From an uncultured delta proteobacterium (GTDB lineage: Bacteria; Desulfobacterota; Binatia; UBA9968), in assembly GCA_963816145.1 (NCBI GenBank), contig CAWFJP010000002.1, forward strand, positions 1 to 64,000: a stretch of 64,000 nt of DNA, written 5' to 3'. Shown one piece after another: positions 9,553-51,254 of the stretch. The translations under genes were made by a program, and so were the position numbers. The notes beneath the pieces were generated by a model, which was not told the origin of the DNA, made no database searches, and was given only the letters and a program-made list of their open reading frames with translations. How positions within the stretch are numbered: the stretch's first letter is position 1; each line of letters begins with the position of its first letter.

Positions 9553-10155
9553 TTACCAGTAGCGCACGCCGCCGATATCGACGTGGACGAAATCCGATTT
9601 CGGATAGAAACCGACGCCGCCGCCTTTCAAGTCGAGGGCGACTTTGCGTAGGGTGCGTAGGTCGCGGCCGGGGAGACGGATGTCGATGGCTTGGCCGACG
9701 GTATGCAAACTATTCTCCGCGACGCCGGTGGTATGGGCGCGCAGGTAGGCGTTGGTGCGATTCGATCGATAGCCGGAGATGACGTGAAACGGTTCGCGGC
9801 TGTCGAGTTGGCTGCGAATGGCGCAGAGCAGATCGAGAAGTTTGGGCGCAATCTCCTTGGTTTCGTTGGCCAGATGATCGCGCAACACGTGGTCGATCTG
9901 GCTGAGCGCTTCGCCGACGTATTGTCCCTGCTCCCAGTAAGTGACCTTCAAGCGTTCGCCGGTGTGGGTGTTGAAGAACGCCAGCGCGCGCTCCGGGCGC
10001 GATCCGCTCGCGCTCGCAGCGAAAATCGGACGCGGTAACGAAGCCGCCGCTAGCGCAACGAAGCCGAGTTGTAAAAACCGCCGGCGGCTATGAACCGGCG
10101 TCTTGGCGTCACTGATTCGGTTAAGGCGATCTCGACGGTGCGGTTGATGCGTCAT
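9553..10155 (-). CDS. YcbK/MepK (DUF882) M15 peptidoglycan endopeptidase, Tat-exported
   Basis: SRRRFL Tat signal; NTHTGE, ISGYRS, SLHTVGQAID and FVHVDIG motifs. Confidence 0.9.
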   Translation of the reverse strand: MTHQPHRRDRLNRISDAKTPVHSRRRFLQLGFVALAAASLPRPIFAASASGSRPERALAFFNTHTGERLKVTYWEQGQYVGEALSQIDHVLRDHLANETKEIAPKLLDLLCAIRSQLDSREPFHVISGYRSNRTNAYLRAHTTGVAENSLHTVGQAIDIRLPGRDLRTLRKVALDLKGGGVGFYPKSDFVHVDIGGVRYW

Positions 10156-45138: not shown

Positions 45139-45818
45139 TGTTGGCGGTCGCGGCGGCGAATTTGACCAAGATTTTCGGCCAGGGCGATAGCCAGATCGTT
45201 GCGCTCAAGGACGCCCAGGTTTCGGTCGAGCCGGGAGAGATCGTCGCGCTCATGGGTCCGAGCGGTTCGGGTAAGACGACGCTGCTGCGCGCGCTGTCGC
45301 TGATCGATCCGCCGACCTCGGGCCGGATAGCGATCGGTGGTGAAAACATTTTCGACGGCGAGCGGGTACTGATCGATGACCGCCAGCTGCGGCGCCAGCG
45401 CATGGGGATCATCTTTCAGGCTTACAATCTGATACCGTTTCTGACCACGGTGGAGAATGTCGCGCTGGTGTTGACCCTCAACGGGATTTCCCAACTTGAC
45501 GCGCTGGTACGAGCTCGCGCCTTGCTCCAGCGCCTCGGTCTTGGTCATCGCGCCGACATCTATCCAACCACGCTGTCGGGCGGTGAGCAGCAGCGGGTCG
45601 CGGTCGCTCGCGCGGTGATCAACGATCCCGCCGTGATTCTCGCCGATGAACCGACGGCGGCGCTCGATACCGAAAGAGGTAAGGCGGTCATGGAGCTGCT
45701 GCGCAATCTCGGGCGCACCCGGCACGCGGCGGTGATCGTGGTGACCCATGATGAAAGAATGATCGAGGGTTTCGACCGGGTGTATCACATGATCGATGGG
45801 CAAATTACCAATCATTGA
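45138..45818 (+). CDS. ABC ATP-binding protein (LolD/MacB/DevA-like)
   Basis: [27 protein letters not shown]. Confidence 0.95.
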
Positions 45819-45841
45819 TCCCGGCAGAGGAGGGTTGCTGT

Positions 45842-46000
45842 ATGTATGACTGGCTTTGGTTTGTTGGGTTTTTCGCCGTCTACGTTGTCTTGATGCGCTG
45901 GGTGCTGCCGTGGCTCGGCGTGCCGACTTGAATGTCGTCCGCTTGCGGCGTCGAGTCTCGACGCCAAGATGAAGAAAAGAAACCGGAGTCGGTGCGATGA
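45842..46000 (+). CDS. Candidate 52-aa membrane selenoprotein (in-frame TGA at 45929-45931)
   Basis: GAGGAGG RBS; MYDWLWFVGFFAVYVVLMRWVLPWLGVPT-U-MSSACGVESRRQDEEKKPESVR; hairpin 3' of the TGA; second stop overlaps ackA ATG. Confidence 0.65.
45942..45968 (+). promoter_or_regulatory. Candidate bacterial SECIS hairpin
   Basis: GGCGTCGA-GTC-TCGACGCC perfect 8-bp stem, extended by CTT/AAG; loop G is 24 nt after the TGA. Confidence 0.6.
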
Positions 46001-47196
46001 GAGTGCTGGTGCTCAACTGCGGCAGTTCGACGCTCAAGTTTCAGTTGATCGAAACCTCGGACTCTGGTGCAACGGAGCGAAAACTGGCGCGCGGTATCGT
46101 CGATCGGATCGGCGGCCCGGCTTCCTACCATTTTGAGACGAACGGCACTAGCGTTGACGAGAAGGCGTTGGCGGTGGCTAACCACGAAGAGGCAGCGCGA
46201 CTGGTGATCGACTGGCTGCGATCCAAGCCCGGGCTAGAGTCCATCGACGCTGTCGGCCATCGAGTAGTTCACGGCGGCGAACGATTCACCGCTTCGGTAT
46301 TAATCGACGACAATGTTATCGCTACCCTGGAAGCGCTTTGCGAGATCGCGCCGCTGCACAATCCGGGTGCGGTCTTAGGCATTCGTGCAGCACAAAAAAT
46401 TCTCGGTGCTGCTATACCCATGGTCGCGGCGTTCGACACATCGTTTCATCACACGATTCCCCAGCAGGCCGCAACCTACGCGATCCCCTACGAACTCTCA
46501 TTGAAACATAAAATTCGCCGCTACGGCTTCCACGGCCTGGCGCATCAGTACGATATCGCGCGTTACGCGGAGCTTTGCGCTAAATTGCCCGCGCAGGTAA
46601 ACGCCATCACCTTGCATCTCGGCAATGGCTGCTCGGCGACGGCGATCCGTAACGGCGAATCGATCGATACCTCAATGGGGTTTACGCCGCTCGAAGGGTT
46701 GGTGATGGGCACGCGCTCGGGCGATCTCGATCCGGCGCTGGTGACTTTATTGGCGCGGAAGGAGCAGGTGGACGCCGCGGCAGTTGAGAGTTGGCTTAAC
46801 ACCCGTTCGGGGCTGCTGGGACTTTCCGGAATTTCCAATGATATGCGCGAATTGACCGCCGCGTATCGGACCGATCCGCGCGCGCGTTTGGCGGTCGATG
46901 TGTTTTGTTACCGGGCGCGCAAGTATCTCGGCGCCTATCTGACGGTGCTCGGCGGCGTGGCGCAGGCGGTGATCTTCAGCGGCGGCATCGGTGAGAATGC
47001 GCCGTTGGTGCGAAAGAAGATTCTCGACCGCATGGAGTGGTGCGGCTTGAGCCTGGACGATACGGCGAACGACCGCATCATCGGCTGCGACGGAAAAATC
47101 TCTACCGCTCGATCGAAGCTCGATGTCTTCGTCATTCATACGGACGAAGAGGCGGTCATCGCGCGAGAGACGGCGCGGCTCATCGAAGGTAGATGA
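45997..47196 (+). CDS. ackA: Acetate/propionate kinase
   Basis: VLNCGSST, GHRVVHGG, APLHNP, RYGFHG, HLGNG, GTRSGD, GGIGEN. Confidence 0.97.
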   Translation: MRVLVLNCGSSTLKFQLIETSDSGATERKLARGIVDRIGGPASYHFETNGTSVDEKALAVANHEEAARLVIDWLRSKPGLESIDAVGHRVVHGGERFTASVLIDDNVIATLEALCEIAPLHNPGAVLGIRAAQKILGAAIPMVAAFDTSFHHTIPQQAATYAIPYELSLKHKIRRYGFHGLAHQYDIARYAELCAKLPAQVNAITLHLGNGCSATAIRNGESIDTSMGFTPLEGLVMGTRSGDLDPALVTLLARKEQVDAAAVESWLNTRSGLLGLSGISNDMRELTAAYRTDPRARLAVDVFCYRARKYLGAYLTVLGGVAQAVIFSGGIGENAPLVRKKILDRMEWCGLSLDDTANDRIIGCDGKISTARSKLDVFVIHTDEEAVIARETARLIEGR

Positions 47197-50344: not shown

Positions 50345-50818
50345 GTGAAATGGATGAAAATGAAATCGTTTTTAGTGGGACTGACGGCGTTGGCGATTGG
50401 CTTGGTGTCTTCCGATAGCTTCGCGCAGCGTGGACCGGGGATGATGTGGCGGGGCAGTGGCGGCTGGGGGCCGGGGACGCAGTACAATCGCATGTACGAT
50501 CCGAAGACGGTGGAAACGATTAGCGGAGAAATTACCGTGGTCGATCGAATAACACCGGTCAAGGGCATGTCGGGCGGTGTGCACATGAATGTGAAGACCG
50601 ATAAGGAAACCATTTCGGTGCATCTCGGTCCGGGTTTTTACATCGAGAATCAGGATGTGAAGCTGCAAGCCAAAGACAAGGTCGAAGTGAAAGGTTCGCG
50701 GATCACGTTCGATGGCAAGCCGGCGATCATCGCCGCGGAAGTGAAGAAAGGCGACGAAGTATTGAAGCTGCGTGACGACGCCGGATTCCCGGTGTGGATT
50801 GGCTGGCGGCGCCGTTAA
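50345..50818 (+). CDS. Exported OB-fold-like protein
   Basis: Signal peptide, Gly/Met linker, YDPKTVETISG, VHLGP, LRDDAGFPVW. Confidence 0.7.
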   Translation: MKWMKMKSFLVGLTALAIGLVSSDSFAQRGPGMMWRGSGGWGPGTQYNRMYDPKTVETISGEITVVDRITPVKGMSGGVHMNVKTDKETISVHLGPGFYIENQDVKLQAKDKVEVKGSRITFDGKPAIIAAEVKKGDEVLKLRDDAGFPVWIGWRRR

Positions 50819-50876
50819 CCGTCAGCGCTTGATGCGGAAGATCGCGGCAGGACGACTAGGAAAAGTGGAGGCGTTT

Positions 50877-51254
50877 GTGTGGCAAACCTTCGTAGCGATC
50901 GGCACTGTGGGCGGGCTATTGGCTGGGCTTTTTGGCGTCGGTGGCGGAATAGTCATCGTACCAGCGTTAATCTATTTGGCCGGACTCTCGCAACACCAGG
51001 CGACTGGGACTAGTCTAGCGGTGCTGTTACCGCCCATCGGTTTGGCGGCTGCGATCGAGTACTACCGCCACGGCAACGTTAACGTTCCTGCTGCGATTAT
51101 CCTGGCGATAACCATGTTCATCGGGACGTGGATCGGTGCCGTGATTGCCAACAAGATTTCCGGCCCTCATCTCAGGCTGATGTTCGGCGTTTTTGTCTGG
51201 GGTCTGGGAACTTATTTGATCTATGGTGCCTGCCGTCGACTCGGCTGGCTATGA
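50877..51254 (+). CDS. Half-size TauE/SafE (TSUP) protein
   Basis: GLFGVGGGIVIVP, ATGTSLAVLLPP; GGAGG RBS before GTG 50877. Confidence 0.85.
   Translation: MWQTFVAIGTVGGLLAGLFGVGGGIVIVPALIYLAGLSQHQATGTSLAVLLPPIGLAAAIEYYRHGNVNVPAAIILAITMFIGTWIGAVIANKISGPHLRLMFGVFVWGLGTYLIYGACRRLGWL

Follow-up and report, generated by a model that had tools for sequence, protein, structure and literature searches.

The paradigm of selenocysteine (Sec) insertion in bacteria is the formate dehydrogenase of Escherichia coli, one of the genes in which a UGA codon is read by SelB with the aid of an intragenic Sec insertion sequence (SECIS). Here a gene is described that appears to combine this textbook bacterial decoding mechanism with an uncatalogued protein family. 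It lies at 45842-46000 on the plus strand of a 64,000-nucleotide stretch of DNA (the window: positions 1 to 64,000 of contig CAWFJP010000002.1, assembly GCA_963816145.1) from an uncultured delta proteobacterium of the class Binatia. Comparison with related sequences indicates that the gene very probably encodes a selenoprotein, and the best explanation of the locus as a whole is likely to be a Sec-decoded, 52-residue membrane protein for which a redox site is the favoured role. The gene is like the SelB-read class in having a UGA, an apical loop that starts with G-U 23 nucleotides (nt) further on, and a stable stem, and also in having Cys homologues and a genome that holds selA, selB, selC, and selD. 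It is unlike the paradigm in that its product is only 52 residues long, is membrane-anchored, and has no catalogued match, while the stem is short, consisting of eight perfect base pairs (bp).

The eukaryotic proteins SELENOK and SELENOS provide a second point of reference. Both are single-pass proteins of the endoplasmic reticulum membrane whose cytosolic tail is disordered, is charged or rich in Pro, and contains Sec; this Sec is at the very C-terminus, and the SECIS is in the 3' untranslated region. Their likeness to the window protein is taken here as an analogy of architecture, and no homology is claimed. The catalogued small families TsoA LULAXC (NF045695), UGSC-containing (NF041046), CYCXC (PF13798), and dual-CXXC (NF041197) are also alike in being short and, as far as their catalogue entries go, in having Sec a few residues from Cys, whereas the window protein has the motif G-x-P-T-U-M-S-x-x-C directly after a membrane helix.

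Scans of Pfam and NCBIfam release 20.0 returned no family at E <= 10 for the window protein (P0001) or for its homologues P0002, P0005, and P0006, and no entry fits in Table 1 of a 2026 review, which gives 119 families or subfamilies with model and motif (PMC13188914). To the extent of these sources, the statement in an earlier sequence-only reading of the window that the protein is unlike known selenoprotein families is borne out. The new families presented in the deep-Sep paper are different proteins and the text of BSepDB contains no membrane family; supplementary tables could list the family. In the literature the motif strings were retrieved only in unrelated papers, and neither a Sec paper on Binatia nor a bacterial single-transmembrane selenoprotein microprotein was found. 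The YgaP-like transmembrane domain PF11127 (formerly DUF2892) gave no match in the protein scan and none in a six-frame whole-genome search whose control was positive in nine of 14 genomes; the window protein has one helix, unlike PF11127 proteins, which have two. A protein-atlas lead to a cluster of 56-residue hypothetical proteins, at a sub-threshold value of 0.85 and with Planctomycetota as its commonest phylum, was not used.

With TGA read as Sec, 52 codons and a stop give a product having Sec at residue 30 and Cys at residue 35. The family signature L-M-R-W-V-L-P-W-L-G-V-P-T (residues 17-29, 45890-45928) lies at the end of the helix and runs directly into the Sec codon (45929-45931), which is followed by M-S-S-A-C (ATG TCG TCC GCT TGC, 45932-45946); the last of these residues, Cys35 (TGC, 45944-45946), completes U-x4-C. 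A six-frame search of 61 related genomes, with places counted at E <= 3.1e-8, located the family at 20 places in 16 genomes. Exactly one TGA is present in 19 of the 20, and most of the alignments extend well beyond it. The twentieth is the second copy in genome G004 (L140, G004:C5), which is frameshifted between LPRLG and VPT, either through decay to a pseudogene or through an error of assembly; its shifted frame still holds a TGA followed by M-V-N-S-C-E-V-E-S-R. In the 16 orthologous loci that were fetched, TGA is preceded by an invariant ...LMRW-x-LP-x-x-GVPT, and the second stop is TGA, TAG or TAA. The set of relatives includes two unpublished genomes, G005 and G035, the former of which underlies one of the 19 TGA places, one of the 16 orthologous loci, and the observation on locus L036 given below.

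A pattern scan with one genome per species found 101 relatives, from which 79 distinct loci were retained; these are related to one another, so that counts across them are not independent. Record titles assign the closest loci to Deltaproteobacteria, Thermodesulfobacteriota, and Candidatus Binatia, and the more distant ones to many Acidobacteriota lineages as well as to Planctomycetota, Verrucomicrobiia, and Chloroflexota. Directly after the conserved G-x-P-T, 70 loci have the codon TGA, eight TGC, and one TGT; because the scan patterns were built from Sec-type sequences, the ratio of 70 to 9 exaggerates the proportion of Sec forms in the family as a whole. Homologues with TAA or TAG at this codon are absent from the 79 loci, while the 70 TGA genes terminate with TGA in 29 cases, TAA in 23, and TAG in 18. 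The in-frame codon thus remains TGA in genes whose real stops vary freely, which argues that it is not an ordinary stop. The sequence-only reading had proposed that the UGA is read as Sec and that the coding sequence continues beyond it, and the comparison agrees on both counts, as the frame and the M-S-x-x-C motif persist past the TGA and the Cys forms are single uninterrupted open reading frames (ORFs).

These data bear directly on a different proposal, namely that the UGA is an ordinary stop that leaves a 29-residue membrane peptide, with the AUG of UGAAUG starting a second mini-ORF or the hairpin described below regulating or terminating the downstream gene ackA. Such an arrangement is very improbable. 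It would explain why Met follows the Sec or Cys codon in 77 of the 79 loci, it agrees with public gene callers that end the protein at UGA (22 of the best 150 representatives discussed below), and TGA is the commonest terminal stop in the set. However, 41 of the 70 TGA genes terminate with TAA or TAG and none of the 79 loci has either at the codon in question. The Cys forms are continuous through C-M-S-G-x-C, and since both the Met and the Cys at +5 belong to the conserved motif in those forms too, the Met is a conserved residue rather than a start. No Shine-Dalgarno sequence precedes the second ATG in the window, no T-run follows the hairpin, and a terminator scan detected no plus-strand terminator-like site in 45500-46300. 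Finally, the hairpin goes with TGA rather than with ackA, a gene found downstream of the small gene in only six of the 79 loci.

Homologues with Cys in place of Sec support the decoding of UGA as Sec. A word-indexed search returned five proteins, two of which are 29 residues long and end in ...GVPT, while the other three (P0002, P0005, and P0006) are uninterrupted, read ...LGVPT-C-MSG-x-C..., and have Cys exactly at the TGA column. A profile made from alignment A1 (17 sequences) was run against 1.84 billion cluster representatives and matched 780 proteins at E <= 1e-3, of which 81 reach E <= 1e-10, the clusters being defined at 50% identity. Among the best 150 of the 780 matches the Sec column is occupied by Cys in 106, 22 proteins end exactly there, and W is found in 16; the remainder have G (two), L (two), or S (one), or are frameshifted (one). 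Cys at +5 is present in 61 of the 70 TGA loci and in 83 of 87 Cys representatives. The U-x4-C motif proposed by the sequence-only reading is therefore real in the window, whereas across the family its Cys is frequent rather than invariant. Residues L17, R19, W20, P23, G26, V27, P28, and T29 are invariant in A1, and G26, T29, and C30 in alignment A3 (50 sequences). Judged from these alignments, the family is large and unnamed and bears either Cys or Sec at the same position.

The W and G residues at the Sec column, in 16 and two of the best 150 representatives, are what would be expected if UGA were read through by a near-cognate tRNA (Trp or Cys) or under a reassigned code. This is the least probable of the readings weighed here, barely more than a formal alternative. 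The W and G entries most likely reflect translation of TGA under tables 4 or 25 by some pipelines. The source genome uses TGA as a normal stop, both at the end of the upstream ATP-binding cassette (ABC) gene (45816-45818) and at the end of the small gene itself, it holds a complete Sec system, and the hairpin matches the SelB-type SECIS model as set out in the legend cited below. Such W or G entries can flag hidden selenoproteins. Here the W entries include P0011, P0013, P0015, P0026, and P0040, and the G entries are P0022 and P0075.

The sequence-only reading had made Sec decoding dependent on the presence of selA, selB, selC, and selD, and all four functions are encoded in the source assembly (7.8 Mb in 31 contigs, 99.5% complete). 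The tRNA-Sec scores 74.2 bits against a cut-off of 47 bits and is called SeC with anticodon tca by ARAGORN. The scores of selA (616 bits), selB (417 bits), and selD (380 bits) all lie above curated cut-offs, and these three genes are contiguous and head to tail (C30:562492-566803) with the tRNA-Sec ~10 kb downstream (576761-576851). Among genomes with the TGA form sampled from other phyla, selA was found in all five, and among genomes with the Cys form in three of five. The selD gene of the source genome carries one in-frame TGA and is thus itself a selenoprotein gene here.

A hairpin with a perfect 8-bp stem and the loop GUC occupies 45947-45965, directly after the M-S-S-A-C codons. Its arms are GGCGTCGA (45947-45954) and TCGACGCC (45958-45965), with the loop GTC at 45955-45957 in the DNA, and the loop begins 23 nt past the UGA. 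The published bacterial model, as stated in the legend of Fig. 2 of the 2026 review (PMC13188914), calls for a loop of 3-9 nt, an upper stem of 4-16 bp, a minimum free energy (MFE) of -7.5 kcal/mol or lower, a G within the first two positions of the loop with G or U as the usual next base, and a distance of 16-37 nt between UGA and loop. The window hairpin, at -12.6 kcal/mol, lies within all of these limits. It was described as SECIS-like in the sequence-only reading, a description that the published limits and the covariation given next both sustain. An Rfam search gave no real match, its lone chance match (E = 0.83) being on the minus strand.

For the comparative test 71 TGA forms were aligned from the UGA onward (alignment A2). 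The eight stem pairs are 83.1% paired, compared with 17.8-44.8% when the 3' arm is slid by one to three columns, and double-sided changes occur in six of the eight. The covariation score of 0.247 exceeds the shuffle mean of 0.143 and was reached by none of 500 shuffles, and RNAalifold independently predicts the inner 5 bp of the stem. Pair 23-33, for example, is UA in 51 sequences, CG in 13, and UG in five, while pair 26-30 is AU in 55, CG in six, GC in two, and GU in four. Some of the swaps join a V-to-A change with a synonymous CGA-to-CGG change, as a constraint on the RNA predicts. A hairpin of at least 5 bp is found in all 70 TGA loci, and in 61 of them the distance from the U of UGA to the start of the loop is exactly 26 nt; the loops comprise GUC (53), GGC (four), GGA (two), and GUU (two). 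An in-register hairpin occurs in 61 of the 70 TGA forms and in only two of the nine Cys forms (L093 and L094).

In acidobacterial members the hairpin reads CCG-U-GUCGA GUC UCGAC-CGG, with a bulged U beneath an upper stem of 5 bp. Locus L056 has GCUC-GGUC-GAGC. In the distant loci L057-L059, which belong to a different family of the same class, the stem at this position has an altogether different sequence (GCGCGCC-GGUC-GGCGCGC). In L036, from the unpublished genome G005, the hairpin is kept though the reading frame across it differs, which points to a constraint at the level of RNA.

The predicted protein is simple in its architecture. AlphaFold2, run with the 50-sequence alignment, gives a helix at residues 2-25 (45845-45916), in agreement with hydrophobicity, with a predicted local distance difference test score (pLDDT) of ~88 over residues 1-20, and low-confidence coil elsewhere, the tail having pLDDT values of 50-57. 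In the window the tail is charged, Q-D-E-E-K-K-P-E-S-V-R (45966-45996). Across the family its length ranges from 15 to 60 codons counted from the TGA, with a median of 37 residues in Cys forms; its sequence varies, with a high content of P, S, A, E, R, and D. In 109 representatives the N-terminal flank has on average 0.37 K+R and 0.93 D+E, compared with 2.55 K+R in the 24-residue segment that surrounds and follows the motif. Under the positive-inside rule, the contrast suggests an N-out/C-in topology, in which the Sec/Cys motif and the tail would be cytoplasmic.

The mechanism envisaged is as follows. SelB with Sec-tRNA(Sec) would be recruited by the hairpin at 45947-45965 and UGA at 45929-45931 read as Sec, giving a membrane helix, the site LPxxGxPT-U-M-S-x-x-C at the cytoplasmic face of the membrane, and a short, disordered, charged tail. 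The U/C-x4-C site would then cycle between a reduced state and a selenenylsulfide or disulfide, or else carry sulfane sulfur, and be recycled by thioredoxin, acting within a gene set for redox or sulfur stress. If selenium were lacking, termination at UGA would leave a 29-residue helix without an active site.

A function as a membrane-tethered selenol/thiol redox relay is proposed tentatively, at somewhat less than an even chance. It is favoured by natural fusions of the helix and TCMSGxC module to thioredoxin (PF00085, with WCGPC or WCSPC) in P0047, from the profile search, and in P0157 and P0158, and to a rhodanese domain (PF00581) in P0159, the last three having come from a search for longer proteins. 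These fusions, like membrane-anchored thioredoxin-fold proteins, join an N-terminal helix of the same kind, with the Cys-form module T-C-M-S-G-x-C, to a catalytic domain. The window protein has no such domain and, under the redox model, would depend on thioredoxin as a separate protein.

The genes around the family were compared by clustering three genes on each side of the 79 loci and naming the clusters with Pfam. The commonest neighbour, at 19 loci, is DUF302, which lies directly downstream on the same strand in 15 (for example L084, L089, L092, L094, and L095) and accompanies both Sec and Cys forms. The DUF302 protein is a candidate partner of the small selenoprotein. In some sulfur oxidisers DUF302 genes lie within sox sulfur-oxidation clusters (PMC5037610). 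The DUF302 neighbour (PF03625) is ~136-158 residues long and has the Cys-containing conserved stretches GFGVLCEID, ILGACNPP, and LLLPCN. Other neighbours are ABC ATPase (14 loci), HlyD (eight), OsmC (seven), ackA, CoA_binding+CBS, phosphorylase, AcrB, Usp, and an ArsR-type helix-turn-helix protein (six each), and P-type ATPase, MacB/FtsX, and Pyr_redox_2+rhodanese (five each).

Most of these genes also surround the small gene in the window itself, within ~20 kb (36349-57140). Upstream are a P-type cation ATPase, a phosphorylase, and a HlyD-MacB-ABC group, and downstream are ackA, CoA_binding+CBS, OsmC, two TauE-like genes, Usp, Pyr_redox_2+rhodanese, and a cNMP-binding protein. In other genomes, genes of this set reappear beside the family in rearranged order, and the set may be a stress or hypoxia regulon. 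Together with the fusions and the neighbours elsewhere, it suggests thiol, selenol or sulfane-sulfur chemistry in a stress-linked set of genes.

Several observations weigh against this account and are considered together. Although Sec machinery, conserved UGA, Sec/Cys pairing, SECIS fit, and covariation were all computed here, the support for translation and for selenium in the product is computational throughout, at a level that in this field is termed 'predicted with high confidence'. The selA gene is present in 56 of the 61 related genomes and, being near-universal in the order, does not discriminate there, and one genome with the TGA form (G009, 93% complete, in 670 contigs) has no selA match. 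As a single sequence, the 71-nt stretch containing the hairpin folds no better than its shuffles (z = -0.97, with 32 of 200 shuffles at least as stable). Because this single-sequence check is weak, the evidence beyond chance is comparative, consisting of the conserved TGA, the covarying hairpin, and the Cys homologues at the same column. In this G+C-rich DNA the mean MFE does not separate TGA forms (-12.15 kcal/mol) from Cys forms (-11.17 kcal/mol; p = 0.23). The hairpin bases also encode V-E-S-R-R, so their conservation could be due in part to the protein. With regard to function, Cys at +5 is absent from nine of the 70 TGA loci; it is replaced or deleted in several Sec forms of the window's own genus (L023, L024, L026, L034, and L035) and in L057-L059. 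Its loss weakens the case for a redox cycle that strictly needs both residues. Each of the four fusions is a single database cluster and might have arisen through faulty gene calling or assembly. Finally, the neighbours are heterogeneous and include many transporters (ABC ATPase 14, AcrB 6, P-type ATPase 5), a composition that also fits metal handling.

The last point leads to the proposal that the protein is a real selenoprotein whose U/C-x4-C site, at the inner face of the membrane, is a ligand for soft metals or metalloids (Cu(I), Hg, Cd or As(III), for example), and that it passes the metal on to neighbouring transporters or regulates them. It is well established that transporters can be tuned by small single-helix proteins. 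Transporters often adjoin the gene (the MacB-type ABC system, AcrB of the resistance-nodulation-division (RND) type, P-type cation ATPase, and Na/Ca exchanger), ArsR-family regulators are near in six of the 79 loci, and a preprint by Haft and Gwadz argues for a role of Cys/Sec motifs as possible metal ligands. Nevertheless, no class of transporter is constant as a neighbour across the 79 loci, and the fusions join the module to thioredoxin and rhodanese rather than to metal-binding domains. The nearby P-type ATPases bear Cation_ATPase_N and Cation_ATPase_C domains, which we take to mark the alkali/alkaline-earth type rather than the heavy-metal P1B type. Binding of metal is considered a live but less likely reading, at roughly one chance in four.

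For the redox relay, the broader proposal is that the gene is the founding example of widespread bacterial single-helix micro-selenoproteins, architectural counterparts of SELENOK and SELENOS in prokaryotes, in which a membrane-tethered, thioredoxin-recycled selenol guards or signals the state of redox or sulfane sulfur at the inner face of the membrane, a possibility to which slightly less weight is given than to the relay itself. If it is true, the protein would be among the commoner selenoproteins of soil bacteria (Acidobacteriota and the lineage of the window), mostly in its Sec form (70 of the 79 loci) and hidden from annotation because it is short and cut at UGA. Inventories of selenoproteins rely on known families and on gene calls that halt at UGA, so a membrane protein of 52 codons is doubly hidden. 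Within the loci retained, the Sec form dominates in several soil phyla, and the family spans 780 clusters at 50% identity. Research on small proteins would gain a family with a clear and testable active site, and the combination of G-x-P-T-TGA-ATG with a hairpin at +26 provides a signature for annotation.

The remaining features of the locus were read directly and agree with those listed in the sequence-only reading, in which the ribosome-binding site, the ATG, the transmembrane helix, the in-frame TGA, the 8-bp hairpin, and the ATGA overlap with ackA are all present and have coordinates correct to within one base. The gene for the MacB-type ABC transporter ATPase ends upstream on the plus strand with the TGA at 45816-45818. 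Between this end and the start of ackA are 178 bases in which translation table 11 yields short ORFs only; with the small gene, the annotation between the ABC transporter and ackA is corrected and the genome gains one more selenoprotein gene. A Shine-Dalgarno sequence GAGGAGGG, of the form GAGGAGG(G), is located at 45827-45834, 7 nt ahead of the ATG at 45842, and a purine run of the GGAG/GAGG/AGGA type is found within 20 nt before the ATG in all 16 orthologous loci.

Downstream on the plus strand, ackA encodes acetate kinase (45997-47196; Pfam PF00871, E = 7.6e-131). The stop TGA of the small gene (45998-46000) overlaps the ackA ATG at 45997 in the sequence ATGA (45997-46000), and ackA has a Shine-Dalgarno sequence of its own, GGAG (45985-45988), 8 nt ahead of its ATG. 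The overlap occurs in six of seven ackA-linked loci of the same genus and family, namely L021 (the window), L022, L023, L024, L026, and L035, and is replaced by a gap in L028. It fits translation that reaches this point, and coupling of the two genes is possible. The association is limited to near relatives, and ackA lies outside the conserved context of the family. The further idea of the sequence-only reading, that read-through ties ackA translation to selenium supply, found no support, given that so few loci have ackA downstream and that the gene has its own GGAG in the window; selenium control of ackA is speculation.

No promoter-like site was detected in 45500-46300, and the small gene may plausibly be co-transcribed with the ABC operon. 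In six soil metatranscriptome runs, identical contigs cover 45600-45848 (the end of the ABC gene, the ribosome-binding site, and the first codons) and none covers 45849-46011; contigs from RNA libraries may contain DNA, and these data decide neither for nor against a transcript across the small gene.

Some further variation was observed within the family. Several genomes have two copies of the small gene, some of them 2-3.5 kb apart, as in G019 (C28:6031-6186 and 9576-9716) and at L116 (~4001 and 6056), while in G022 the copies are on contigs C124 and C193. The divergent subfamily L057-L059 (genomes G271, G238, and G294) has the form MESW...LQ[LV]W[VL]LPRLGVPT-TGA-A-[VL]-P-x-A-R-R-S-A-R, without Met and without the +5 Cys after Sec.

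In the window, a TGA-interrupted TauE gene at 50772 was considered as a further candidate and rejected, since the frame upstream holds 11 TGA and three other stops. The ORF at this place (50772-51254) corresponds to half the length of TauE/SafE (profile positions 120-237) and overlaps, in another frame, a 157-codon ORF (50345-50818) without a Pfam match; the half-length ORF could be the result of a frameshift, part of a split gene, or one of two half-size genes.

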